The position numbers were made by a program, and so were the translations under genes. A stretch of 63,695 nt of DNA, filler included, from Reclinomonas americana ATCC 50394 (taxonomy: Eukaryota): the NCBI GenBank assembly GCA_048213135.1. It is 6 parts of 3 records of this genome, joined end to end, with 100 filler letters (N's around TTAATTAATTAA, not from the genome) between each part and the next. Parts side by side here need not be neighbours in the genome. Positions count along the whole stretch, not along the records: positions 1 to 13,474 come from PS015089.1; 5 more parts are not named here. One strand, given 5' to 3'. A model generated the notes under the pieces. The model did no database searches and was not told the origin of the DNA. It saw only the letters and a list, made by a program, of their open reading frames with translations. Positions 3,201 to 48,976 of this stretch are shown here, one piece after another (positions within the stretch are counted from its first letter, which is position 1; the number at the start of each line of letters is the position of its first letter).

Positions 3201-4865
3201 GTGCGTGCTGCTGGGCGTGATTCACGACCAGTCGGTGAAGGCGGCATACGAGTCCATGGACCTCACGCAGTCGACATCCATCGATCGGCAAATCCTCGTG
3301 GATATTCCTCGTTGTCATCAGGTGTGTGCTTCGAGAAGATGGTGATTTGGTGCTCCTTCCTGACTGTTGCGTTCACCTGCACAGTATCACTCGCTCCTCG
3401 GCAGCAAGGAGGGACGACAGAAGCTGGAGCGAGTCGTCAAGGCGTGGTTCCTCACCGACAAGGGCATGGTCTACTGGCAAGGTGCGGTGTTGGCACGTAA
3501 ATTGTCACTTTTTTGTCTTCCTAATATTGTGCATTGTTGTAGGTCTTGATTCGCTGTGTGCCCCGCTGCTGGCCCTCAATTTCCACTGCGAGTTCCGAGC
3601 GTATGCGTGCCTGGTGTCGCTGGTCAATCGGTACGTGTGCACTCTGCAGAATTGTGAATGCACAGTGGCCTCATGGTCGCCTCGACAGATTTGTAAAGAA
3701 ATTCTTCGTTTCCGAGACCACGTACCCGATGAAGCAGCACTTGCTCGTCTTTATGAAGGTGAGTTGTGTGCTCTTGTGCACGTTGATGGAAAACCCTTCT
3801 CACATCCTCAGCAGATGATGCTGTATCATGATCCGGAGCTGGCACACCACTTGCTCAGCATCGAATTCCATCCCGAGCTGTACGCCATTCCTTGGTTCCT
3901 CACTCTCTTTGGCCGTTGCGTCGGCTGTGCACAATTGAGTAATTTCCCTCCTTACTCACAGCATTCGTGCAGATGTGCTGCCACTGGAGAAGATCTACAG
4001 ATTATGGGACGTGCTCCTGCTGAAACCACCATCGTGGCCTCTGTGTCTGGCCATTTGCTTCGTGCAGCAGATGCGGACAGAGTTGTTGCAGGCGGATCTC
4101 AGTTCGAGTGTGCATTTCGTGGCCTACATGCAGGTACGTGCACGCTGTGCACCAGCCTTGGAGACTACCAACTTACGCACTCGTGATTCCAGGATATCGA
4201 CATTGCGTCGTCGATTGACAAGGCCAACAGCATTGCGGACAAGACGCCGTGGTCGGTGTTTGATCCGAGTGTCTTCAAGGTGCGTTGCAATGCCGCGAGT
4301 TTGCTTGACCGTGCCAGCCGAGTGACACGTGCACGACAGCCGCGCCACGGGTACTCGCCAACCCCAACCGAAACCGAGTACTCCATCAACAGCGCGGAGA
4401 TCACACTGGAGGATGCACAGCGCCTGATTCCCACCGTCACCGTGGTGTGCGCGCCCGGTCACGTCGCGATTCCCGAGCAGTGCGTCTGCGTGATGCCCGG
4501 TGCTTTCCCCCACCCTCACTCGACGCTGATGATTCGCTTTTTTGTGATGCACGCAGACTCGCCAGTGCCTCGTCGGTGCGAGTGCACGAGTGTGTCGACT
4601 TTCTGGAGACGCTGTCTGCCAAGAGAGGACTGCCGCTGGTGGTGCTCGCCGAGGATGCCAGTGTGGCGCAAGAGGTCGGTGGAGAGAGTGTGGTTCTCTT
4701 CTTATTTACGTGTCTATCGCTGATGAGTGAGAAACACAGGTGGCCCACCTACTCACCAAGGCCAACTTCCCGTACGTTTCAGTGCTTCGGTTGCGCACGA
4801 ATCCAGCGGTGGGTCCGTCGGGGGTGTGGCCGCCGTCGCCAATACCTTCAGATCGAGAGGAATGA
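209..4865 (+). CDS. TBCK: TBC domain-containing kinase-like protein (pseudokinase + TBC Rab-GAP + rhodanese-like C-terminus), multi-exon, 5' end outside window
   Basis: Kinase-like exons LLWQIACDVGNGLLALHEVGVVACNVCPANI and PYLAPEL. TBC motifs GIPNILRGEVWCVLLG, IDRQILVDIPRCHQ, VYWQG|LDSLCAP and YHDPELAHHL...[27 protein letters not shown]. C-terminal AHLLTKANFPYVSVL. Exons join via GT-AG introns; stop TGA at 4863-4865. Confidence 0.9.
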
Positions 4866-5962
4866 ATGACGTCTCGACTTGTTGGCATGGTGGTTTCACA
4901 GTGGGTGGGTACAGTGCTCACTCGGAGAGGTGCCCGGTGCAGCGCGTGTTGCTTCATTGAGCGGCGTGTACGCGAAAGGTTGTATGGGAGGGAGGGAGAC
5001 AGAGAGATAGAGAGAGAGAGAGAGAGAGAGGGTGGGGAGTGGAGGGACGGAGAGCGAAAGTGATCGAGAGACTAAGAGTTTCACAGGAGTGCGCACACCC
5101 CGTTGCCGGAACCCTCGCCGTGTCGGCTGCCAGACATCGGCGTGAAGGCTGAATTCGAGACGACACGTCCATTCGGAGTGTAGCACACAAGCCGGTCGTG
5201 CGTGCCAGACGGCTCAATGGGCCACCCGCTTGTGTTGTCGAATCCAGGCTGGCCCGGACCAGAGGGAACGTCTTTGATCACTCGACATTTGACGGACGAT
5301 TCAAACGCAGTCGCCTGGCGAATCGTGGGCTTCTCCCCGCCTGTTTGATGGAATGAGCGCAAGCGGTTCGCAAGAGTTCGATCGAGATGACAAATCACGT
5401 ACTTTTCTTTCGCTCGGACATTGTGCAACAAAAGAGTCAATAATGCGTGTTCGGTCGTCAGGAGTATTATCGTGCCGTCATGCGCCAGCTGGCGTGTACG
5501 GAGTCTATTTTGAGGGAAGTTTGCTCATTCTCGCAACATCTGGATCAGAAGCAGGTGTCTAACACGCACAGCGGAAACACACTGATTTAGCAATGGCATA
5601 CATCAACAAGCAATCAGGCGCGCTGTGCGGCTCACTCGGCCCGCCGAGGGCCGGCTGGCCCTTTATCTCGTATAGGCATTGACTGTGGAATCACAAGGAG
5701 TCGCCTGCCAAGTTACGGGCTTCTCGCCACCTGTTTGACCAAGAGTATTCTCATTTTCTCATCATCAGAAATGCACGCAACTTGTGCCAATTCTTTGTCT
5801 GGTCTGGAGGGGTGTTAACAGGCTGTCATGTGCCACGGCTGGCGTGCACGGGCATGTGCCACGGCTGGCGTGCACCGGGCTGTTCGAATGTTCGGTTTCA
5901 AGGTTATATATTTAGGGTTGCTCCCGACAGAAACCACACCAACTATCTTTCTCAGCATCTTC

Positions 5963-6424: not shown

Positions 6425-6863
6425 ATGAGAGTGATTGGTGCGCTCTCCGGCACCTCCGCTGACGGCATCGACGTGGCAGTGTGTGACATTGAGGAAGTGC
6501 CTCGTACAGACGAGTTGCGTCACTCGCAAAGACAACAGTCACACACACTCTCTCACTCTCACACTCTTTTTCTCTGTCTGTCTGCAGTGACCGGGTGGGA
6601 GTCTCGTTGCGCGTGGTGGCCTCGGATTGTGTGCCTTTTGCGCCCGAGTTGCGCAGTCGCATCTTGGCTGCGTGTGCAAGTGAGTGGCGGGGAGTTGTCA
6701 TGTCGGAGAAATGACTGAGAGAGGAGAGAGAGAGAGAGAGAGAGAGAAGAGAGGAAGGGGGAGAGAGATATGCAGCAAGACAGGCAGGCAGGCAGCAGAA
6801 AGTGAGTGAGGGAGAATGACACACAGAGAGAGATAGAGGGACTGCGAGAGACTGAGAGAGAAA

Positions 6864-6894
<31 letters not shown>

Positions 6895-7879
6895 GAGGCG
6901 AGACAGAAAGAGGGAGAGGGATGCAGCAACACAGGCAGAGTCGGGAGAGAGTGACAAAGTTTAGGAACGAGAATGAAAGAGAGAGAGAGCGAGCGAGCGA
7001 AGCAGACAGACAGGCAAGCAAGCTGACTAACAGCGAGAGACAGAGAGACACAGACACCATGCAACCCTCCCACTCGCTGCTCGTGCCTCAATTCTCCTTC
7101 TCCTCCCTTTCTCCCCTCCCTTTCTCCCCATCTTGCAGACCGCTGCGACACCCGCGAGCTCTGCCGCCTCAACTTTGACATTGGCCGTGCCTTCGCCGCC
7201 GGCATTGCTCACGTGCTCCAACAGCACCACGTGGAGATGAGCAGCGTGCATGCCGTTGGCACTCACGGACAGACAGTGTGGCACGAGGTTGGCGACGATG
7301 GCGTGGTCGACTCCACCCTGCAACTGGGCGAGGCCGCCGTGCTGGCCGAGGTCTGCAACGTCGGCGTGTGGAGCGATTTCCGCGTGGCAGATGTGGCCGC
7401 TGGTGGGTGCGGGGCACCGCTGACTGCCACACTCGACGAGTACTTGTTCCGTCCGGTGGCAGGGGCGGCAGGTTGGCGCGCGCTGCAGAACATTGGAGGC
7501 ATCGGCAATGTCACCTTTCTGAGTGGCAGCAGTGGCGATGCTGCTGCTGCTGCGGTGAAGGCGTTTGACACGGGACCTGGCAATGTGCTGATTGACGGTG
7601 CGGTGCGCCTGGTGACGAACGGAGCGGCCGCGTATGATGTGGACGGGGAGCGGGCGTCGCGTGGCCGCCTGCTGAATCCTGTCATTCGGCAGTTTGTAAA
7701 GGAACACGATGCGTTCTTTGCGCAACCGCCGCCCAAGACCACGGGAAGGGAGCGATTCAGTGAGGAGGTGGTGGCTCGCATCGTGCAGCAGTGCCGTGAG
7801 TTCGATCCGCACTGCACCGACGACGATGTGATCAGCACGGTGACGCAGTTGACGGTGGTGCGGAAAAAACACAGAGATG

Positions 7880-7920
<41 letters not shown>

Positions 7921-9352
7921 NNNNNNNNNNNNNNNNNNNNNNNNNNNNNNNNNNNNNNNNNNNNNNNNNNNNNNNNNNNNNNNNNNNNNNNNNNNNNNNN
8001 NNNNNNNNNNNNNNNNNNNNNNNNNNNNNNNNNNNNNNNNNNNNNNNNNNNNNNNNNNNNNNNNNNNNNNNNNNNNNNNNNNNNNNNNNNNNNNNNNNNN
8101 NNNNNNNNNNNNNNNNNNNNNNNNNNNNNNNNNNNNNNNNNNNNNNNNNNNNNNNNNNNNNNNNNNNNNNNNNNNNNNNNNNNNNNNNNNNNNNNNNNNN
8201 NNNNNNNNNNNNNNNNNNNNNNNNNNNNNNNNNNNNNNNNNNNNNNNNNNNNNNNNNNNNCTCACCCCCTCACCCGCAGTGGTCCATCGCGGACGCCTAC
8301 CACCGCTTCGGCCCACCGCTGGACCAACTCACCGAAGTGATTGTGCACGGTGGCGGTGCACGCAACTTGGAGCTCATGCGACGCCTGCGCGAAGCTCTGC
8401 CCGCATCGCGGGTGGTGAGCATGAGTGACGCCGAAATGTCGACACGAGTGGTCGGCATGGACGGCGACAACAAGGAGTCGTGTCTGTTTGCGTTGCTGGC
8501 GTTCCTGGCCGCACGTGGACTGCCAGTTGCGGCGTCGTGTTGTGCTTTCTCTTCGATACAGATGGCTCATTTGCTGCGCAGGGCAATGTTCCGAGTGCCA
8601 CGCACGCTTCGGGTCCACGCATCCTCGGCAAGTACTCGCCGCCACCCCGATTATCGCCGTCCAAACTGGTGCTTCTGAAAGGCTTGCCTGCCACGGGCAA
8701 GACGACACTGGCGCACAAGGTAGCGGAGATCTCTTGTGCGCTTACCACACACGCCAACTCATCTTTACTTTGTGTGTCAGCTGGCGGAGCATCTCGGCGC
8801 TGTACTGGTCTGCAAGGACGATGTGCGCGACGTGTTGAGTGTGATGGACGCGCGGTTGAATGCTTCCTTGCCGCCCGGTTCGCCAGTCGTGGACACCAAT
8901 GACGAGTGCTACGTGCGTTTCACAATCTTGCCTTTAGAGCGTTTCCGTTAACTCACCTGACTCGCCGCGTCTCGCAGCACGTGGTCTTCAAACTGATGGA
9001 GAGCAATCTTCGCCTGGGCCACACGGTTCTGCTGGACTCGCCCATGATGCGTGGCGAGTTGTACGAGAGGGCGGTCTCCTTGCTGTCAACATGCTGCGTG
9101 TCTAGTGCGCCACCGGCAGTCGTCGAGTGCATCGTGTCTGACGTGGACGAGTGGCGACGGCGTGTGGAGGCGCGACGCGGCCATCCGCACAAGCCGCACG
9201 AATGGTCTGCCATGGAGCACCTCATGCAGCGGGATGTGCCGTACGATTTCGTGCCCGGCAGCTGTCATGTGGTGATCGACACTGTGTCTGACGACGATTC
9301 AGTGGACAAGGCCGTGCAGCAAGTCATGGCACAGTTGCGCGACAGCACGTAA
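6425..9352 (+). CDS. anmK: Anhydro-N-acetylmuramic acid kinase (AnmK/levoglucosan kinase family) fused to C-terminal P-loop NTPase/kinase (AAA_33-like), multi-exon
   Basis: AnmK motifs IGALSGTSADGID, GTHGQT, DFRVADVAAGGCGAPL, QNIGGIGNVT, FDTGPGNVLID, PKTTGRERF, GGGARN, KESCLFALLA and GNVPSAT. These continue within one exon into LVLLKGLPATGKTTLA (Walker A), then KDDVRD, VLLDSP and VVECIVSDVDEWRRRVEAR..HKP..W. Stop TAA at 9350-9352. One intron contains an N gap (7921-8260). Confidence 0.9.
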
Positions 9353-9541
9353 ACATTATTGGTAATTGAGTTTCATTTGTTGTATCTCTTTTCTTGTGTC
9401 TTGTCACGTGGTGATCGACACTGTGTCTGACGACGATTCAGTGGACAAGGCCGTGCAGCAAGTCGTGGCACAGTTGCGCGACAGCAAGTAAACATTATTG
9501 GTAATTGAGTTTCATTTTGTATTGTATCTCTTTTCTTGTGT
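9263..9541 (+). repeat. Tandem duplication (~139-nt period, 2 copies) of the last codons, stop and 3' flank of the AnmK fusion gene
   Basis: tgtca(t/c)gtggtgatcgacactgtgtctgacgacgattcagtggacaaggccgtgcagcaagtc...taaacattattggtaattgagtttcattt occurs from ~9263 and again from ~9402 with few differences. Confidence 0.95.
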
Positions 9542-9614
9542 GTTTTTTGATTCGTGTTTCGACGGTCGGCACTTCTTTGGCGTTGCACGTCCACACATAC
9601 AATTTGTCGTTTAG

Positions 9615-10687
9615 TTATTGTGCCGCAGATGCTTGCGGCACCCGGCGGCGCTTCCGCAACGGCGAGGAATCGCCACTCTCTTGTTCCGCCTCTCCAGGCT
9701 CCTCCCTGCCTCGTTTCTGCCAGAAACAAGACCAACGGTGAGACAACCTGTTGCCACTCGCGCAAGCACGCACAACCGACACACCTTTTTGTTGGCGGCC
9801 TGCAACAACAGCTCCGACAGCGAGCCCAGACGAAAGTCCACCGACGGCGTTCGCTGTCGATCGAGACTCATCGAGCTGGCAGCAGCCGCAGCCGCAGCCG
9901 CAGCGGCGGCAGCAGCAGCGGCGCCACTTCCACTTGCTCCACTGACGGCGGCGTGACCGTTTGTCGCGCTCGGCGGGTGCAGCGGCGGACGACCGGTCTC
10001 TGCCGCCGCAGCAGTAGCAGCAGTTCGATGTCTGTTGTGCATGCCCAGACGCAGTTCGTGCTCTTCGCCGTCCGGCGAGGTGATAATGGTGCTGGTGCGT
10101 CCCCAACCGCCTGGCGGCAATGCCTCCTAGAATGCATACACAACTGAGCACTCCAGGCAATTGTCGTCACCTCGCCACTGTGTGCGCTCTCACCTTGACA
10201 TGGCCTCCCTCCCGTGGCGACAGCGGAGGCGATAATTTGCTCCACTTCGGTGTCGGCAGTGAATCTGCCGAAGGCGTGCGCGCCACCGGTGGAGGTGTGT
10301 TGTGAGCAGTGGAAGGCATGAGCGGATCGTGAGGCCGCGCCTCCAGCGGTGGTGATCCGAGTGGCACGCTGCCGACGCCGCCATTGGCCGCGCGATGAGC
10401 AGCATTGCTTGCAATCGAGCGCACCGGAAGCTGCAGGGAGCAGAAGCGCAGTTCCCTGGTGGGATCAGCGCTGTGTTGGCGCTGTGATGATGGGGAAAAG
10501 AGATGAGTAAAAATAAAGGGAAGAGTGTGCAGCACTACTCGGTTTTGACGAACCACACGCGCCGAAAACGTGCCACAGAACGAGGCACGGTGCTCGCTCA
10601 AGTCGCCCGAACGCGGCTTGGCGGGCTGTTCACCGGATCCCGAGCCACCAGAACCATGCTGCGGCTGCGACTGTGTCAGTTGTTGTG

Positions 10688-10719
<32 letters not shown>

Positions 10720-13474
10720 ACCAGTGGCGACATGACACGAGTCGAGGACCACGAAGGCGTCACTGCCAGCGTGTCGCCAGTCGCACTCGACACTCTGCCC
10801 GGCGACGACACCAGCCGGAACTTTGATGGCCGACTGCCGAGTGCGTCCACGCCAACACCAGCAATGGACGGCGACAGGCGCAAATGAGCTGGCGGCGGCA
10901 CCTCGAGTCGCAGAGGACGCGAGGGCGCAGCCGATGCACTTGTAGGATGCAATTGCTGCGACTCTTGGTGCTGATGGTGATGGTGGTGGTGATGTTGGTG
11001 ATGATGATCGTGCTGCTGCTGTTCGGCAGCGGCGGCCGCATGGAACACCGAGAGCACGTGCTGCGGCGAAAGCGAGCCAGCACGCAACTGTCGCCTCTGC
11101 TCCATCGGCGACTTTGGCGGTGTCGGCGGTGGCGACAGATGTGGCGAGTGGCGCGGTGACACCAGGGGCGAAACCGCCGACCTCGCAACAAGCGAGTCCA
11201 TGTCACCCGGCTGCGGCGTGTGCCGCCGTGCCACAGGCACTGCCACACTCAGTGAGCGCTGAGGAGGAGAGGCAGTCGGGGCCACCGGCAGCGCCGCCGA
11301 GTGCGCGCGAGAGTGACCAGTGACACTGGCCGCTCGCGTGCGCGTCCGTGGCGAATCCACCAGTGGTGGGGTGAATGCGGTGGATCTCCCACCACGAGAT
11401 GTGGCTGTAGGCACGGAAAGTGGCATCGGAACACCACCAGTTCGTTTCAAAGCTGCACATGCACGCAGGTGAGTGACAAGGCAGAGAAAAACAAAGAGAT
11501 GAGGAAGCGATGTGTGGGTGCATACCTCGATTGAGCAGTGAGTCAAAGACGCCAAGTCCGCGCGCCTCAGCCAGGCGACAGCAAAAGTCGAGTGCCCGCA
11601 CCGACACGCCGTCTGTGGGTCGCGGACGAGGCGACCACACCGCCAAACCCATCACGCCGGGGACGACCATGATGACGGCGCCATTGCGCGACGCTTTGGT
11701 CGGCACGCCCACCTGCACGCACCACGAGCCGCGCGTATTACCAGCACCGCAATGCAGCATCATGTGCGACACACGCTTCACGGCATCAGCGTCATACACT
11801 CGTCTGTCGGAGCGCGCAACACCGTGAGCCACCAAAACAAGGCTGTGAAGAGCAAAAGAAAGAGACAAACTGACCTTCCTGTAAGCGGTGAAACACCACC
11901 GGCGGCCAGCGTTCCCGCCATGCAGGCTAGTCTCCCGCAGTTCACCGGCACCGTGTTCTGCATGGCCTGCAGCTCCAAGGTCGCGGAGACATCGGTGGCC
12001 CACTGCGGGAACACTTGGTGATCGAGCTGCAAGGAAACAGCAGCGTGAGTCGACGATCAAAAGAGAGAAGGGTGGTAAAAGGGCAAGGGATTACACACCA
12101 AATAGTGCGCGACACTGGCCTCGTGATCAAAATGCGAGCGCAGCATTTGGCGCGCCGCGGTCTCGGCCGGCACAAATGGCCGACCATCGCCAGCGCACTG
12201 CTTGAGTGACTCGAGCAGTGAGGCGAACCGCTGTGGCACTGTGGCGGGCGCCTCGGCAGTGTTGCCCGCCAACGAAGTGACCACCAGCGATCCGGCACCC
12301 GTAAACGGGTTGAAAGGCTTGCCCTGACGGTCAAGCACAAAATCGTTGCGTGTCGGGTCCGCCTCCACGCCAATGTGCGCATGCACACCTCGCACGCCAT
12401 GCTGCGACAGCGCCGAAGCGTATGCGAACACCGACGCCAGTCCGCCCAACGGGAACTCCTGCTGTGCGCCGCCGCCGACCGTAAATCGCTGGCCGTCGAC
12501 CGTGCACACCGACACCACTGCGAGAGGGGAGAAAAGGGGGGAAAGGCGTTAGAGAGGGTGTCGTTACATCTGGGCTGCTGCTACTGACTTGTTAATTGCA
12601 GCTGCAGAAGTTACCTGTCCGCAGCGAACTCACGAGTCTCTGTGCTGCTAGCTGTTACTGACTGCACAAGTTACCTGCTCTCCGTCGCTCACTGGCGTCT
12701 CGCTCTCATGGTACGAGTCTCAGCGCTGCTGTGTTGCTGTTACAGACTCACAAAACTGCACCATTACCAGAACTCACAACTCTCTGTGCTGCATACACAC
12801 ACATACTGCGTTCATCCTTCACCAAAGGAAGCACCACTCACCCAACGGCACCTCCGGCCCGCCGTCGACATCGTCGCTGGGGCTGAAGAGGGTGCGAATG
12901 GTGGAGGAGCCAGTGGGTGCCGCCTTGCGGCGCGTCTGTTCGTGCAGGTCGCTGACAAGCCGGCAGAATCCGGTCCAATCGGGAACGGCCAGCGAGCCGG
13001 AGAGAGCACGCGACACGACATTGTCGGAACTGGTGCGCAGCACTTGCCCCAAAAACTGGGAGAAACTGAGTCGCGAGAATGTCGTGTGCGAGTGCACCGA
13101 CGGAGGCGTCGGTGTGCGCGTCAGCGGCGCCCGTCCCGAGGACTCGCCGCCAGTGGATCCAGAAGCAGCTGCTGCCGCCGCCGCTGCTGCTGCTGCCATG
13201 GGAGGAGAGCCGGAGCCCTTTTCCGCAAACCACTCCTGCAACTGCGTCGCCACGTGCCGCAACTCGCGCCACTGCAGACCGCACGACTGCTGCAAAAATG
13301 TCTGCAGGGCAGACACACTTAGCCGTGGGTCGGTGGCGCCGTGGCCGGAAGGGGTCGTTGATGTTGTGGTGGTGGAGGACGCGGAGGAGGAGGAGGAGGG
13401 GGGCACGCCGCCGCCGCGATGCATGGATTGTTGAGACCACGAGAGTGGTAGTGCTGCACTGCGACCTGAGATAT
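9615..13474 (-). CDS. Glutaminase-like protein (eukaryotic GLS-type domain, catalytic residues absent) with long low-complexity C-terminus; 5' end runs into gap
   Basis: SRALSGSLAVPDWTGFCRLVSDLHEQTR; VSVCTVDGQRFTVG...FPLGGLASVFAYASALSQHG...VHAHIGVE...KPFNPFTGAGSL; LACMAGTLAAGGVSPLTG; MMLHCGAGNTRGSWCVQVGVPTKASRNGAVIMVVPGVMGLAVWSP. These blocks are collinear with known glutaminases. Confidence 0.8.
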
Positions 13475-13518
13475 NNNNNNNNNNNNNNNNNNNNNNNNNN
13501 NNNNNNNNNNNNNNNNNN

Positions 13519-13530
13519 TTAATTAATTAA
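13519..13530. other. Artificial scaffold linker TTAATTAATTAA (also at 30361, 36867, 42452, 61448)
   Basis: Identical 12-mer with stops in all six frames, centred in ~100-nt N blocks. Confidence 0.97.
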
Positions 13531-13574
13531 NNNNNNNNNNNNNNNNNNNNNNNNNNNNNNNNNNNNNNNNNNNN

Positions 13575-18915: not shown

Positions 18916-20208
18916 ATGCGTTTCGCTCTCGTTCTCGCTGTGCTGGCGGTGATTGTCGGTGTGGTGTCGGCCAATGCCTTCCACAAGTACGCCGTCCACC
19001 AGGACCTGATCAACACGGTCAACTCGTCGGGCAAGGGCTGGAAGGCCGCCCACAACAGTTCCGCTCATTTGCACGTTTTTGCATGTTTTTCCGTACCATT
19101 TTGTAACCGCTCTCTCTCTCTCCTCTTCCACCACCAGAGTTCAGCTTCTGGACTGTGGAGGAGGCCAAGGCTCTGCTGCGCACGGAGGTGCTCCCGCACA
19201 ACCCGAATGCACCGGTGGCTGTGGAGGAGGCTCGCGTCGGCGATGTGCCCGACACCTTTGATGCTCGCACCAAGTGGGCTGGCTGCAAGACCATTGGTTT
19301 GTCAAATCTGCAGAATTGCTCGCTTTTCATTCTGCACTGGCTCATCTATATCCCGTGTGCAGGCACCGTCCGCGATCAGATGCAGTGCGGTAGCTGCTGG
19401 GCGTTCGCCGCCGGTGAGTGCTTGCGCCAATCCACCTCTTTTGTTGTTTCTCCATCTCACCGTTGCGTGATTTGCAGCTGAGACTGCCTCGGACCGCTTC
19501 TGCATTGCCAACGACGGCGCCAGCGACGCTGAGATGTCGCCGCAGTACCTGGTGAGCTGCGACACTGGCAACGCCGGCTGCAACGGTGGCAACCTCGACC
19601 TGGTGTGGTCGTGGATCACCCACCACGGCATTGTGTCTGTTGCGTCTGCCCGTTTTGTTCTGTTGTTGTTGCGCTTGTGCATTCCTCGCGCTCATCGCGC
19701 ATTGTGTAGGACGACTGCATGCCCTACACCTCGGGTGGTGGCGACTCTGGCGTCTGCCCGTCCCAGTGCAAGGACGGCTCGGCCTTCCGCTTTGTCAAGT
19801 CCAAGAGCTACAAGCATGTGGGCGGCTTCCTCTCTCTGCACCGCGTGCAGGACATCCAGGAGGAGATCATCGCCAACGGCCCGGTGGAGACTGGCTTCTC
19901 GGTCTACCAGGACTTCATGTCGTACAGCTCGGGTGTGTACGAGCACACCACTGGCGACCTGCTCGGCGGCCACGCCGTCAAGATCCTCGGCTGGGGCAAC
20001 GAGAACGGCAAGGACTACTGGCTCGTCGCCAACTCGTGGGGCACCAGCTGGGGCCTCAACGGCTTCTTCAAGATCAAGGTGTGTCTCACAAAACCATCAA
20101 TTTGAATTCTGTCGTGTCTCTCACCAATGTGCCGTTTTCATTCCCCTCGCGCAGCGCGGTGGCAACGAGTGCGGCTTCGAGGCCCAGGTCTACGCTGGCG
20201 ACTTCTAA
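18916..20208 (+). CDS. Cathepsin B-like cysteine protease (papain family C1A) with signal peptide
   Basis: Hydrophobic N-terminus MRFALVLAVLAVIVGVVSA; VPDTFDARTKW; RDQMQCGSCWAF (catalytic Cys); GCNGG; GGHAVKILGWG (His); YWLVANSWG (Asn); RGGNECGFE. Five GT-AG introns and strong C/G third-position bias. Confidence 0.95.
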
Positions 20209-30190: not shown

Positions 30191-30416
30191 CCGGGTGTGC
30201 GATAGTGGGGGGATGGTGGTGATGTTCCCGGCCGAGTAAGTGTTTTTTTTGCGGTCGCAACAAACCGAGTAATACTGATTTCTTGGGAAGCTGTCTTTCG
30301 CACTGTTTCCTCTCTTNNNNNNNNNNNNNNNNNNNNNNNNNNNNNNNNNNNNNNNNNNNNTTAATTAATTAANNNNNNNNNNNNNNNNNNNNNNNNNNNN
30401 NNNNNNNNNNNNNNNN

Positions 30417-40390
<9,974 letters not shown>

Positions 40391-42407: not shown

Positions 42408-42939
42408 NNNNNNNNNNNNNNNNNNNNNNNNNNNNNNNNNNNNNNNNNNNNTTAATTAATTAANNNNNNNNNNNNNNNNNNNNNNNNNNNNNNNNNNNNN
42501 NNNNNNNTTTGTTGTGCTGATCGATTTGTGAGTGGAGAGGCGTTGGCGGGCGGCTCTCTCATGTCCAAAAATGATGAAATGGAAATATCTTCACAGTGTG
42601 AGGCCTCACTGTGTGCAGTGGGGTGTGCAGGGGGGAGGAAGGAGGAGGAAGCTGACTGAGTGCCTGTTCGCTACCGTTGACGATGGATCAGGTGCAGAAC
42701 CGAACAGCAATTTACGGAAGCATGCGCAATCATTTCTTCATCTTCTCCTGTGGCGAAGGAGTGGCCGGTTTTCTTTGATGGTCGCGGGGAACTGTAGAGT
42801 GTTGTATAGAGCTGATGATCGTTGGCATAACGGGGACAACTGATCTGCGTTCGCAGAGCTGTGTGTTCGAATTCAATTATAAGTGAGAGTTCGTCGCGAT
42901 CACGATACAAGTTGGCAACACAGCTGCTCCCTTGACCTT

Positions 42940-43796: not shown

Positions 43797-46700
43797 ATGA
43801 GCGACGGCGGCAGCGGAAGTCCTCCGCTCGGCCGATCGCTGGGCGCTGCTGGTGGCAAGCGCTCTGTCGCAGTCGCAGTGGCAGTGGGTCAGTCGCCACT
43901 CTGCAAAAGAGAGAGACAGACAGAGAGTGACACACAAGGAGACAACAGTTGGGCTTGTGACTTGTCTGCTGCAGTGGACGCAGACGCAGCTGTTGTTGCA
44001 GATAGAGTGGAGAGAGAGGCAGACAGACAGACAGACAGAGAAAGCGTGCTTTGTGTGCACTCTCCGATGACAGTGTCACGCATTCTCCCGCGCTCTCATC
44101 TTTCCTCTCTCTTCAGCTCTCTCTCTCTCTCACACAGACACACTTCCCCCCTCTCTCACTTACCCTCACTCTCCCTCTCTCCCACACACACACTGCCTCT
44201 CTCGTCACACGTTGGGCTTATGGACATGTCGAAACTCACACTCGCAACTCACACACAGCTCGCGGTGCTGCCTCTGCCGCAGCTGCCGCCTCTCCGGTGA
44301 GTCACCTCCTCCTCCTCTTTCCCACTCCTCTGCTCATCTCCTTCTCATCTCCGACGCACTCTGCAATAGGAGGTCGACGAGTCTGAGTTGACAATCGAGC
44401 CAAGTGGTCAGTCTCTCCCTCTCAATCACACTCTTTCCTTCTCTTGCGTGCTCACTCGCGGTGTGTATGCGTGTGTGCGTTTGACTAACACAGAGACGCG
44501 CGTGGACTCACTGGAGCTCGATGTGCGGGAGAAATCATCACACAATCGTCGTCTTTCCCCGCCACCGCGACGCCATGACTATGATGATGACGACGACGAT
44601 GATGATGGTGGTGAACGTCGGCATGCATCCACAGCCGATCGTAGAACCGATGATTCATCCGACTCGTCCATCGCCACGCGTGGACGACCTCTGGCTCGCG
44701 GTCTGCATGGGATTGGTGGGGGACTGGTGGCGGCTGCGGCGGCGGTGAAGGGCTCCTCACCGCCACCGGTGCGGCCTCCGACTCCGCCGGCGGTGGGAGG
44801 CACGTCGCCACCTGCGCAGCTGGTGGCGGAGTCGGCGACGGCGGCGCGACCCGGCTCCATGTGGGACGACTTGTCGCGCCCGCACCATCGCGGNNNNNNN
44901 NNNNNNNNNNNNNNNNNNNNNNNNNNNNNNNNNNNNNNNNNNNNNNNNNNNNNNNNNNNNNNNNNNNNNNNNNNNNNNNNNNNNNNNNNNNNNNNNNNNN
45001 NNNNNNNNNNNNNNNNNNNNNNNNNNNNNNNNNNNNNNNNNNNNNNNNNNNNNNNNNNNNNNNNNNNNNNNNNNNNNNTTCGCACACGTTTAGCGTGCAT
45101 CCAGTGGTCTACAGCGATGAGTTTGATGAGCCGCAGGCCTCACGTGCTGGCGATGCTGGCGACACAGCGCTCGTGGAGGAGGATGAGCCGACGCCGGCGC
45201 GGGCGACTGCCGCGGTGCCGATTTCGGCAGCGGCGGCACTGGCCGCTGCTGCGTCGGTGGAGAGCAGCATGCCGTTCACGCCGCCACAGTCGAGTTACAT
45301 GGCGGCGGCGTTGGCGGCTGCTGAGCTGGTGGAGGACGACATGACGCCACCGCCACCGATTTCGTCGTTTGTGCTCTCCGGCACGGTGGATTCGCCGCGC
45401 ACGCATGTGGGGAGTGGTGGCGGCGGATCGCCACGCGTGTTCGGCACCGCGTCGCCGCGAGTGTCATCGGCGACGCTGCACACGCATCTGCACACGCACC
45501 TCGTGTCGGACGACACGTCGCCTGTCTCGGCGACCGCCTCACCGCCTGCAGCCCCCGGCGGCAGTGACGCATCCATCGCCGCTGCAGCTGCCGCCGCTGA
45601 ATCACCCGCCGTGATGAGCAATCCGCTGTCGACCATGTCACCGTCGCCGTCCACAGTGGCTGCTCTCGTGTCGGCGGTCACCAACAGCAGCGAGGCGGCG
45701 GCGGCGTCGCTCGGCCGCGGCGGCGCCATGCAATCGGTGCAGCCGATTGCCCCATTCCGACGACGACCAAACGCGCCGCCCGGCATTCAGCAGCCGGAAC
45801 CTCCTGCAGGAGGAGCGTCGGCTGGCTCCGCTGCCGCATCGTCGTCGCGTCTGTCGCGTCAGCGCTCCAAGACGCAGCCGTCCAAGCCGAGACCCGCGCC
45901 TCGAACCAGTTCACGGCCGACGTCGATGACGCTGAGCGGGAGCGGCAGTGTGGCCAGCGGTTTTGTGGCCAGTGTGCGCGCCAACGAGTCGTACGTCATC
46001 CACCCGGCGCACCCGTACCGCAACCGCTTCCTGGAGGAGAACATGCAGGTGCTGGAGCCGGCGTCGGGTCTCGGCAACTCGTCGTGGCTCTCGTTGTTCC
46101 CGTATCTCCGTGACACTGATTCCAGTTGCGTGGGAGGAGAACGGGGATGAGGGGGGAAGGGAGAGGGAGATAGGGGAAAGGGAAGGGAGCTGGGGGAAGG
46201 AGGTGAGAAAGCAATAAGAGAGAGGGGGGTGGGAGAAAGAGAGAGGAGAGATCGAGAACGAGAGAGACAGGAGAATGTATAATAAGGAGAGGGATAGTGG
46301 ATTGAGGATGCGGAGGCACGGATGGAAACTAGAAAGGGAAAGGCTGAGATCAGGTCACTGAATGACTGAGGAACTAAATGATGTTGCTTGCTGACTCTTC
46401 GTCCTATTTTCACAGATTTGTCTCCCGACAAAACCGCACCGGCCGAGTCCTTCCGCAACATTGTGGAAGACTGGTGGTGGTCGGAGGTCGGTGCATTGCG
46501 CGCCCACAAGCATTTCATCCGACTGCACGACGAGGTGCTGCACATCACCAACAGCGTGTGGCGCATCGAGACTGTCGAGTTTGTGCCGGAGAATGCCAGC
46601 CAGACAGGTGTGATGGAAGGGAAGGGATGCGGGGAAAGGGAGGAAGGGAGGGTGAAGAGAGGAAGAGGCTGAAGAGAGAAAGAATCTGGAGAAAATAAGT

Positions 46701-48976
46701 GGAGAGAGAGAAGGAGAGTGCGTGTGTGTGTGTGACAGACAGACAATCTCGAACATGTGACGAGAAAGGAACGCATACTTACCGAAGCGAGGGCGGAAGA
46801 GACTGAGATTGACAGCTGAGAGTGGAAGTCTCAGAGAGACCATAAGAAAGAGACTGCATCGGGAAGGGATAGAGAAAGAGCCACGACAAAGAAATAACGA
46901 ACGAAAGAAAAAACAGCCAGAAACACAGACGCTGAGATGGGACTGCGACAGACTGGAGAGTATCTGCCTGCGACAGACTCATGAGAGAGGGTTTGCGGTC
47001 GATAACTGAGCTTCCCAATCGCTTCGCTCAGTGTCGTTCAGTTATGCGTGTCACTTCATTCCCTTGTTTCTCTCACTCTCGCTCTGTGCTCCATAGTTTC
47101 CTTCCTTTCTGTCCTTCTTTGTGCTCCCATCTCTCCATCTTTCTAACTTGGCTTCTTTCATCATCATCTCTCTTTACCTCTCTCAACACTCGTTTGTCTG
47201 AGTCTCCCATTCGCTCTTTCTGCCTACCAGGATTTCTCATCGCATCGTCTTGCCGTCACAATCCGTCTATGTTTCTCTCCCCTCTCTCGTCTCCGTCTCC
47301 CTCCCTTCTCCCTGTCCCTCTCCCTTCTCCCTCTCCANNNNNNNNNNNNNNNNNNNNCTCGCACACGTTTAGCGTGCATCCGGTGGTCTACAGCGATGAG
47401 TTTGACGAGCCGCAGGCCTCACGTGCTGGCGATGCTGGCGACACAGCGCTCGTGGAGGAGGATGAGCCGACGCCGGCACGGGCGACGGCCGCGGTGCCGA
47501 TTTCGGCAGCGGCGGCACTGGCCGCTGCTGCGTCGGTGGAGAGCAGCATGCCGTTCACGCCGCCACAGTCGAGTTACATGGCGGCGGCGTTGGCGGCTGC
47601 TGAGCTGGTGGAGGACGACATGACGCCGCCGCCACCGATTTCGTCGTTTGTGCTCTCCGGCACGGTGGATTCGCCGCGCACGCATGTGGGGAGTGGTGGC
47701 GGCGGATCGCCACGCGTGTTCGGCACCGCGTCGCCGCGAGTGTCATCAGCGACGCTGCACACGCATCTGCACACGCACCTCGTGTCGGACGACACGTCGC
47801 CTGTCTCGGCGGCCGCCTCACCACCGTCAGCCCCCGGCGGCAGTGACGCATCCATCACCGCTGCTGCTGCCGCCGCTGAATCGCCCGCCGTGATGAGCAA
47901 TCCGCTGTCGACCATGTCACCGTCGCCGTCCACAGTGGCTGCTCTCGTGTCGGCGGTCACCAACAGCAGCGAGGCGGCGGCAGCGTCGCTCGGCCGCGGC
48001 GGCGCCATGCAATCGGTGCAGCCGATTGCCCCATTCCGACGACGACCAAACGCGCCGCCCGGCATTCAGCAGCCGGAACCACCAGCAGGAGGAGCGTTGG
48101 CTGGCTCCGCTGCCGCATCGTCGTCGCGTCTGTCGCGTCAGCGCTCCAAGACGCAGCCGTCCAAGCCGAGACCCGCGCCTCGAACCAGTTCACGGCCGAC
48201 GTCGATGACGCTGAGCGGGAGCGGCAGTGTGGCCAGCGGTTTTGTGGCCAGTGTGCGCGCCAACGAGTCGTACGTCATCCACCCGGCGCATCCGTACCGC
48301 AACCGCTTCCTGGAGGAGAACATGCAGGTGCTGGAGCCGGCCTCGGGTCTCGGCAACTCGTCGTGGCTTTCGTTGTTCCCGTATCTCCGCGACACGGATT
48401 CCAGTTGCGTGGGAGGAGAAGAGGGATGAGGGGGGAAGGGAGAGGGAGATAGGGGAAAGGGAAGGGAGCTGGGGGAAGGAGGTGAGAAAGCAATAAGAGA
48501 GAGGGGGGTGGGAGAAAGAGAGAGGGAGAGGGGGACGAGAGAGACAGGAGAGTGTATAAGAAGGAGAGGGATAGTGGATTGAGGATAGGGAGGCACGGAT
48601 GAAAAATAGAAAGGAAAGGCTGAGATCAGGTCACTGAATGACTGAGGACTCGTTGATGTTGCTTGCTGACTCTTCGTCCTATTTCGCAGATTTGTCTCCT
48701 GACAAGACCGCACCGGCCGAGTCCTTCCGCAACATTGTGGAAGACTGGTGGTGGTCGGAGGTCGGTGCATTGCGCGCCCACAAGCATTTCATCCGACTGC
48801 ACGACGAGGTGCTGCACATCACCAACAGCGTGTGGCGCATCGAGACTGTCGAGTTTGTGCCGGAGAATGCCAGCCAGACAGGTGTGGCAGAAGAGAAGGG
48901 ATGCGGGGAAAGGAAGAGGTTGAAGAGAGAACGAATCTGGAGAAAATGAGTGGAGAGAGAGAAGGAGAGTGCGCGC

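Follow-up and report, generated by a model that had tools for sequence, protein, structure and literature searches.

The subject of this study is a 63,695-nucleotide (nt) stretch of the genome of Reclinomonas americana ATCC 50394 (GCA_048213135.1), hereafter called the window, whose positions serve as coordinates throughout. At positions 6425 to 9352 of its + strand lies one gene of seven exons, encoding a protein of about 588 to 604 amino acids (aa) in which a complete AnmK domain is followed by a predicted AAA_33-type P-loop kinase. With a probability of about 0.62, we consider this to be a genuine single protist gene encoding a fusion of two kinases, the AnmK half of which would act on an anhydro sugar, most likely 1,6-anhydro-N-acetylmuramic acid (1,6-anhydro-MurNAc, or anhMurNAc), and the P-loop half on a small carbohydrate. 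Judged from the sequence, the two-kinase fusion as such is very probably real. The combination of AnmK with an AAA_33 P-loop kinase appears to be new, as no second case was found in the searches made. Both component families are known, as is eukaryotic AnmK of bacterial origin, and the gene does not represent a new kind of system.

Gene structure and the join between the two domains

The domains were delimited with hidden Markov models (HMMs) built locally from 19 AnmK homologues and from 33 relatives of the P-loop kinase, all window rows being excluded from both sets. On the spliced 588-aa model, the AnmK HMM matched residues 1 to 395 (positions 1 to 389 of 400; E = 7e-144) and the P-loop HMM matched residues 403 to 586 (positions 5 to 187 of 221; E = 1e-49, 155 bits). 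Each match is a single stretch, and the two are contiguous and do not overlap, with 7 residues in between. This is in agreement with the first-pass annotation of the window, which had described a full AnmK domain joined to a full AAA_33-type P-loop domain in a spliced eukaryotic gene with introns in both halves. Two of its six introns interrupt the P-loop half, and three or four lie in the AnmK half. All are of the GT-AG type and every acceptor ends in CAG; intron length is not divisible by 3 in five of the six, and introns 4, 5, and 6 measure 56, 61, and 65 nt, respectively.

Exon 1 (6425-6513, +) begins with ATG 6425, the first in-frame ATG downstream of a stop, and encodes the SGTSADGID phosphate-binding loop. 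Exon 2 (6588-6679, +, with an alternative start at 6602) is followed by the donor gtgagt and aligns with the second beta-strand region of AnmK homologues. The junction between these two exons allows several choices: the 3' end of exon 1 may be 6503, 6513, or 6537, and nine frame-keeping GT/GC-AG pairs are possible. The pair 6513/6588 has the best splice signals, with an acceptor preceded by a pyrimidine tract and a donor (gttgcg at 6514) whose hexamer is identical to that of the intron 4 donor, and gives a protein of 596 aa. The pair 6503/6602 has the top HMM score and the closest fit to homologues, and gives 588 aa, while 6537/6588 gives 604 aa. The choice among them leaves the fusion finding untouched.

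The core of the AnmK domain, from HGQT and DFR...GGCGAP through NIGGIGN and FDTGPGN to PKTTGRE, is encoded by exon 3 (7139-7857, +), and exon 4 (8280-8525, +) carries GGGARN and the KE(S) region with the catalytic Glu. Exon 3 is flanked by intron 2 (6680-7138, +, 459 nt), in which (GA)n/(CT)n simple repeats are abundant, and by intron 3 (7858-8279, +), which holds a 340-N scaffold gap (7921-8260), so that its length as written may differ from its true length. These and related simple repeats fill 6690-7060 and 7880-7920 of the two introns, and the gap is likely due to the (GA)n run that directly precedes it. Downstream of the junction exon, exon 6 (8781-8912, +) supplies the P-loop kinase with its acceptor-site motif KDDVRD and a variable loop, within a continuous HMM alignment, and exon 7 (8978-9352, +) encodes the Walker B-type DSP, VVEC, the EWRRRVEARRG lid, and HKPxxW, ending with the stop TAA at 9350-9352. 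The AnmK half has a GC content of 0.637 and the P-loop half one of 0.606; at third codon positions of the whole coding sequence (GC3) the value is 0.74. At the 3' end of the gene we observed a 139-bp tandem duplication, either real or an assembly artefact, which copies the final 29 codons together with their stop codon and the beginning of the 3' untranslated region. The first copy spans 9263-9378 and the second 9402-9517 (+), with 97% identity, and the second copy gave a tblastn match to residues 559 to 587.

The two halves meet in exon 5 (8582-8719, +), which is bounded by ...gcgcag upstream and gtagcg downstream. Its frame runs without a stop from GNVPSATHASGPRILG via a proline-rich linker into GLPATGKT, and the sequence thereby bears out the earlier claim that a single exon leads from the AnmK C terminus into Walker A. 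The exon comprises the AnmK C-terminal motif GNVPSATHA...ILGK, the 7-residue linker, and the first strand and Walker A motif of the P-loop kinase.

The locus could instead give rise to two separate proteins, through alternative splicing, retention of intron 4, or an internal transcription start, in which case the fused form would be no more than a minor product or a construct of the gene model. Reading through intron 4 does lead the AnmK frame to a stop at 8676-8678, and relatives of both halves stand alone almost everywhere. However, the canonical C-terminal motif of AnmK is missing from the read-through product and is found in the next frame directly after the consensus acceptor ...gcgcag; this loss on read-through and recovery after the acceptor constitute strong sequence evidence for the splicing of intron 4. 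Furthermore, neither a stop nor an in-frame ATG is present between the AnmK C terminus and Walker A, where 7 residues separate the HMM matches, and a distinct P-loop protein would therefore have no evident start. We consider two separate proteins to be quite unlikely, and we infer that one transcript spans both domains.

An assembly artefact, in which a chimeric contig or a collapsed repeat has joined unrelated genes, is very improbable. The window is indeed a gap-rich draft scaffold with 25 N runs, and the tandem duplication described above lies at the end of this very gene, but the join would have had to fall in frame within a 138-nt exon and exactly at the domain boundary, and composition and intron style are alike on both sides. 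Moreover, 8261-13474 is free of N, and the junction therefore lies on continuous sequence. The first-pass annotation had excluded both contamination and a gap join; this holds for the junction, but has to be corrected in that the 340-N gap does lie inside the gene. The gap is located in intron 3, in the AnmK half and away from the junction, and since the AnmK profile resumes across it (from position 273 to about 272-288), no exon is missing.

The AnmK domain and its relatives

At the level of single exons, Pfam PF03702 (cut-off 24 bits) matched exon 3 with 177.9 bits (E = 4e-52; profile positions 58 to 273) and exon 4 with 37.5 bits (positions 288 to 346), and exon 1 scored 19.6 bits over positions 1 to 23. 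All AnmK motifs reported in the first-pass annotation are present: SGTSADGID in exon 1; THGQT, DFRVADVAAGGCGAPL, NIGGIGN, FDTGPGN, and PKTTGRE in exon 3; and GGGARN and KES in exon 4. The AnmK domain is complete and two-lobed, extending from the SGTSxDGxD loop to the C-terminal motif.

Functional residues were mapped by alignment to Pseudomonas aeruginosa AnmK (chain index minus 5), with the key residues of this enzyme taken from a preprint on tick AnmK (bioRxiv 10.64898/2026.03.13.711553). P. aeruginosa AnmK is a homodimer in which Asp182 is the general base and Glu326 lies at the Mg/gamma-phosphate site (PMC10570956). Residues T97 (HGQT), R129 (DFR), N168, D182 (FDTGPGN), and D191 are all retained in the window protein, and F202 is conservatively replaced by Tyr. 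S12 and D14 in exon 1 and E326 in exon 4 (KE), which were read directly from the exons, are retained as well.

The proteins nearest to the AnmK half are bacterial (about 50% identity, 228 bits), the named ones coming from Caldilineae, Chloroflexota, and Gemmatimonadota, and none of the matches listed is at or near 100% identity to it. Eukaryotic matches were obtained from Cavostelium (418 aa, 44%) and Naegleria (473 aa, 38%). We computed a quick IQ-TREE phylogeny of 80 rows, comprising the window protein, Cavostelium, Naegleria, and 77 bacterial loci, namely those of 80 loci with an AnmK match of more than 300 residues. The window protein grouped with Cavostelium, Naegleria, and one Caldilineaceae metagenome-assembled genome, with a Shimodaira-Hasegawa-like approximate likelihood ratio (SH-aLRT) value of 94, which was not starred and stems from a quick search.

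Among solved structures, exon 3 matched Lipomyces levoglucosan kinase (LGK) best (153.5 bits), ahead of Shewanella AnmK (111.7 bits) and Pseudomonas AnmK (99.6 bits); the corresponding E-values were 7e-44 for LGK 4zxz and 4e-31 for AnmK 3cqy. The AnmK half thus belongs to the clade that also produced fungal LGK, and similarity alone cannot give its substrate. A hint comes from domain fusions. The first-pass annotation had regarded AnmK as normally a stand-alone protein, which is not always the case: 36 of the best 120 of 503 longer AnmK relatives carry a C-terminal MurQ-like SIS domain (according to Pfam annotations, confirmed for two proteins), and others are fused to GNAT, beta-lactamase-type, or methyltransferase domains. 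The many AnmK-MurQ fusions tie the clade to MurNAc 6-phosphate (MurNAc-6-P), which favors anhMurNAc. R129 and T97 are said, in the tick preprint, to bind anhMurNAc by its carboxylate and N-acetyl groups (bioRxiv 10.64898/2026.03.13.711553). Equivalents of both residues are present in the LGK rows too, and they therefore do not discriminate between anhMurNAc and levoglucosan.

Eukaryotic AnmK has been described in ticks, rotifers, Naegleria, ciliates, and fungi, and this literature proposes a role in prey or symbiont peptidoglycan for such genes, including those of Naegleria and ciliates (bioRxiv 10.64898/2026.03.13.711553, PMC9928731, PMC13198582, and PMC10570956; for Naegleria and ciliates, PMC9928731 and PMC13198582). 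Like the AnmK genes of ticks, rotifers, Naegleria, anaerobic ciliates, and Cavostelium, the window gene encodes an AnmK of bacterial type in a eukaryotic host and has acquired introns; unlike it, none of these has the P-loop domain, and the Cavostelium and Naegleria proteins (418 and 473 aa) consist of AnmK alone. With bacterial AnmK (PF03702; P. aeruginosa 3qbw/8cpb, and 3cqy) it shares the full-length domain, the motif set, and the named ATP- and sugar-binding residues, from which it differs by its introns, the C-terminal P-loop kinase, and the replacement of two residues by Cys and His. Lipomyces starkeyi LGK (4zxz/4yh5) is likewise a eukaryotic member of the anhydro-sugar kinase family with the same chemistry (PMC10570956), but it is a stand-alone protein of 447 aa. 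Finally, the bacterial AnmK-MurQ (SIS) fusions have the same layout, with AnmK at the N terminus and a second enzyme at the C terminus. Their partner is an etherase acting on the AnmK product, whereas that of the window protein is an uncharacterised P-loop kinase.

The P-loop kinase domain and its relatives

The motifs GLPATGKT, KDDVRD, LLDSP, VVEC, EWRRRVEARRG, and HKPxxW of the window protein agree with the consensus of the P-loop family. We take GLPATGKT to be the Walker A motif, KDDVRD the acceptor site, LLDSP the Walker B motif, and EWRRRVEARRG the arginine lid. As judged from motifs and profile coverage, the P-loop half is a complete AAA_33-type kinase domain. Ten P-loop relatives were scanned with AAA_33; all matched at E <=3.4e-5, and nine exceeded the 27-bit cut-off (P0144 scored 24.6 bits). 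The solved structure nearest to the family profile is 2rhm, an unannotated putative kinase (E = 4e-12). The AAA_33 "predicted kinase" subfamily to which 2rhm is the nearest structure shares GxxxxGK[ST], DKDDxRD, DSPL, VVEC, EWRRRLExR, and H[KH]PxxW with the window domain and differs from it in that all relatives seen stand alone or have other extensions. The Zeta toxin/UDP-N-acetylglucosamine (UDP-GlcNAc) kinase family PF06414 gave no match on the window exons. It matched one P-loop relative below threshold (P0125, 20.8 vs 22.3) and is co-annotated on 36 to 83% of the members of the atlas clusters of this family, which we treat as a lead only.

The spread of the family was examined by a HMMER search of 1.84 billion representatives with a 124-aa piece of exon 7 that does not include Walker A. 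This returned 42 matches (best E = 1.2e-9) of 73 to 453 aa. The named eukaryotic members come from strawberry, kiwifruit, Macleaya, a lycophyte, a fern, a liverwort, the green alga Elliptochloris, and an MMETSP protist transcript; further members are metagenome proteins labelled "predicted kinase." Bacterial members belong mostly to Chloroflexota, with some from Gemmatimonadota, Trueperaceae, Rubrobacter, and others. The last motif has the HKP form in the window and in the eukaryotic members and is mostly HH-x-T in the bacterial ones. Three relatives are longer (396 to 435 codons; L129:3917-5185, L115:3518-4705, and L095:1-1305): in one, the kinase domain is followed by a weak methyltransferase match, and the other two have AAA_33 only, plus unassigned extensions.

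No tested function for any member of the family was found in the profile libraries, the atlas, and the literature searched. NCBIfam matches were weak and scattered, the commonest being a homoserine kinase model (17 of 34 members, best E = 7e-7). Atlas labels were generic only (AAA_33, Zeta-toxin), and the literature on 2rhm and on AAA_33 in Arabidopsis held nothing bearing on the function of the family.

Since gene context may inform on function, we clustered 23 strong bacterial P-loop loci by their shared neighbors. In five of them, four from Trueperaceae (L142-L145) and one from Rubrobacter (L137), the P-loop gene lies between an AP_endonuc_2 TIM barrel and a GFO/IDH/MocA oxidoreductase, directly upstream of the latter and in the same direction. 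Upstream of the P-loop gene, the Trueperaceae loci encode the AP_endonuc_2 (xylose-isomerase-like) TIM barrel, a Peripla_BP_4 sugar-binding protein, and a sugar-type ABC permease. The Trueperaceae cluster is a typical carbohydrate uptake-and-catabolism operon, and the same kinds of parts make up the levoglucosan cluster of Bacillus smithii, as presented in its description (PMC7676230). One of these loci, L143, carries a tandem pair of P-loop paralogues (3965-4522 and 4526-5059). Two further contexts are single cases and were not used for function: at L117:1218-1796, on a high-GC metagenome contig, the P-loop gene has chorismate synthase on one side and a shikimate kinase/dehydroquinate synthase fusion on the other, and a type II dehydroquinase follows downstream; in L120 the P-loop gene stands beside PFOR and a two-component system.

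Occurrence of the fused architecture

A two-domain protein of this kind might already be widespread, as the first-pass annotation had considered, yet the listings and locus sets examined contained no second case. PF13671 is absent from the best 120 of 503 significant longer AnmK relatives. Conversely, none of the 42 exon 7 matches is a fused P-loop member, and none has an AnmK-sized N-terminal extension. A literature search retrieved no paper pairing PF03702 with PF13671 or describing AnmK fused to a P-loop kinase. The two families were not found side by side in bacteria either: no P-loop family member lies within 6 kb of AnmK in 80 bacterial AnmK loci, and no AnmK lies within 4 kb in 43 metagenome and 40 bacterial P-loop loci. 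An origin of the fusion from a shared bacterial operon was considered and rejected as unsupported, since 0/80, 0/40, and 0/43 loci pair both families.

Proposed function and its alternatives

We propose the following activities for the fused protein. The N-terminal ASKHA-fold AnmK domain would bind ATP together with a 1,6-anhydro sugar. The Asp conserved in FDTGPGN would activate water at C1, and transfer of the gamma-phosphate to O6 would yield a sugar 6-phosphate. Most likely the substrate would be 1,6-anhydro-MurNAc, converted to MurNAc-6-P, the alternative being a levoglucosan-type substrate. Seven residues downstream, the P-loop kinase, with its intact Walker A Lys, Asp-x-x-Arg, Walker B Asp, and arginine lid, would phosphorylate a second hydroxyl acceptor, presumably a small carbohydrate of the same salvage route. 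We suggest a carbohydrate acceptor because the P-loop domain occupies the position that MurQ has in the bacterial AnmK fusions, and because bacterial P-loop relatives sit in sugar-catabolic operons. Operon lead and fusion may both point to a small carbohydrate rather than to nucleic acid, a thin indication. That both halves are active, on such substrates, and in connection with the digestion of bacterial prey is what we infer. Salvage of prey cell walls would be a reasonable reading, and it matches proposals made for Naegleria and ciliate AnmK (PMC9928731, PMC13198582).

Domain fusions of such a kind usually link steps of one pathway. A more far-reaching idea, which we hold only tentatively and consider rather doubtful, is that the fusion acts as a Rosetta stone assigning the "DKDDxRD / EWRRR / HKP" AAA_33 subfamily to carbohydrate salvage, the two halves being a convergent pair and the Trueperaceae and Rubrobacter operons the bacterial version of it. 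Under this idea, the AnmK half would open and phosphorylate a 1,6-anhydro sugar and the P-loop half would phosphorylate a free sugar such as MurNAc, N-acetylglucosamine (GlcNAc), or glucose, coming from digested bacteria or from anhydro-sugar breakdown, and both routes would feed one sugar-phosphate pool. This subfamily is conserved from liverworts to flowering plants and is also found in algae, protists, Chloroflexota, and Trueperaceae. The main value of the gene would be a testable hint that an uncharacterised P-loop family widespread in plants consists of carbohydrate kinases. The gene is also a further example from a protist that keeps bacterial peptidoglycan-recycling enzymes, of which a growing number are known.

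Several observations weigh against the proposed pair of active sugar kinases. The Gln of GGQGAP is replaced by Cys in the window protein, as the first-pass annotation had noticed; the replacement is real and is found in none of the 225 homologues matched at this position out of 240 (Q in 209, H in 9, E in 4, and L in 3). Likewise, the Gly of the C-terminal T-G-A motif is replaced by His, where 197 of the 224 homologues matched out of 240 have Gly and none has His. With two near-invariant residues replaced, the AnmK half may have an altered or weakened activity. As for the P-loop half, Pfam AAA_33 (PF13671) scored 15.4 bits on exon 5 and 19.1 bits on exon 7 when single exons were searched, both below the cut-off of 27. 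After 2rhm, the structures closest to the family profile are PSTK (E = 4e-5) and the Pnkp kinase domain (E = 9e-5), which are tRNA and polynucleotide kinases and not sugar kinases. The operon context is limited to two bacterial lineages, whose P-loop proteins share 27 to 32% identity with the full-length window domain, and the other P-loop loci show no recurrent gene context. Finally, the apparent rarity of the architecture was assessed on the best 120 of 503 rows and with a 124-aa query without Walker A.

The two substitutions bear on two further explanations. In the first, the fusion is real but its AnmK half has been repurposed, either to act on levoglucosan or a different anhydro sugar or to serve mainly in binding or regulation, and the protein has no role in peptidoglycan. 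Such unusual changes in the active site may report a change of substrate. A precedent is tick AnmK, which has a different active-site change and is about 500-fold slower on anhMurNAc; its authors suspect a change of substrate (bioRxiv 10.64898/2026.03.13.711553). The best solved match of exon 3, Lipomyces LGK, and the resemblance of the Trueperaceae operon to the B. smithii levoglucosan cluster (PMC7676230) point the same way. However, the closest sequences are of the bacterial AnmK type, at about 50% identity, in a clade with many AnmK-MurQ fusions, and R129 and T97 are kept, though the LGK rows keep both as well. We regard a repurposed AnmK half as possible but rather unlikely, and retain a two-kinase fusion acting on anhMurNAc and a small carbohydrate as our preferred reading.

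In the second, a bacterial gene was transferred and is now decaying as a pseudogene, and the replacement of the same two near-invariant residues could be taken as a sign of this. Decay is nevertheless hard to reconcile with seven open exons, two full-length domains, and a coding-like codon profile with a GC3 of 0.74, and the named catalytic residues are kept, F202 being a conservative Tyr. We therefore find this explanation hardly probable at all.

Other features of the window

Two further coding regions were found by codon-usage ranking, and long stop-to-stop open reading frames of the window gave no Pfam match. The first, an exon at 19710-20102 (+), encodes part of a cathepsin B-type cysteine protease (Peptidase_C1, E = 2.6e-29). 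Its closest matches are environmental proteins, and the named relatives come from Stygiella (cluster representative 70% identical), Nutomonas (64%), Andalucia, Acrasis, Willaertia, and Naegleria; the nearest named ones are jakobid, ancyromonad, malawimonad, and heterolobosean proteins. These relatives, bacterivorous flagellates and amoebae, would fit a deep-branching, heterotrophic, probably bacterivorous protist that lacks close relatives in the databases. The second, at 12060-12548 (-), is a glutaminase exon (PF04960, E = 2e-16).

An open frame of 163 codons occurs in two copies on the - strand, at 45298-45786 and 47577-48065, with 160 of 163 residues identical. The copies lie 2279 bp apart, which indicates a tandem duplication of about 2.3 kb. 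This frame, rich in Ala and Gly and without a Pfam match, may be non-coding on the - strand. Lastly, paired runs of 44 N, 12 bases apart, are present at 13475-13574, 30317-30416, 36823-36922, 42408-42507, and 61404-61503, and they resemble a mark left by scaffolding software rather than biology.

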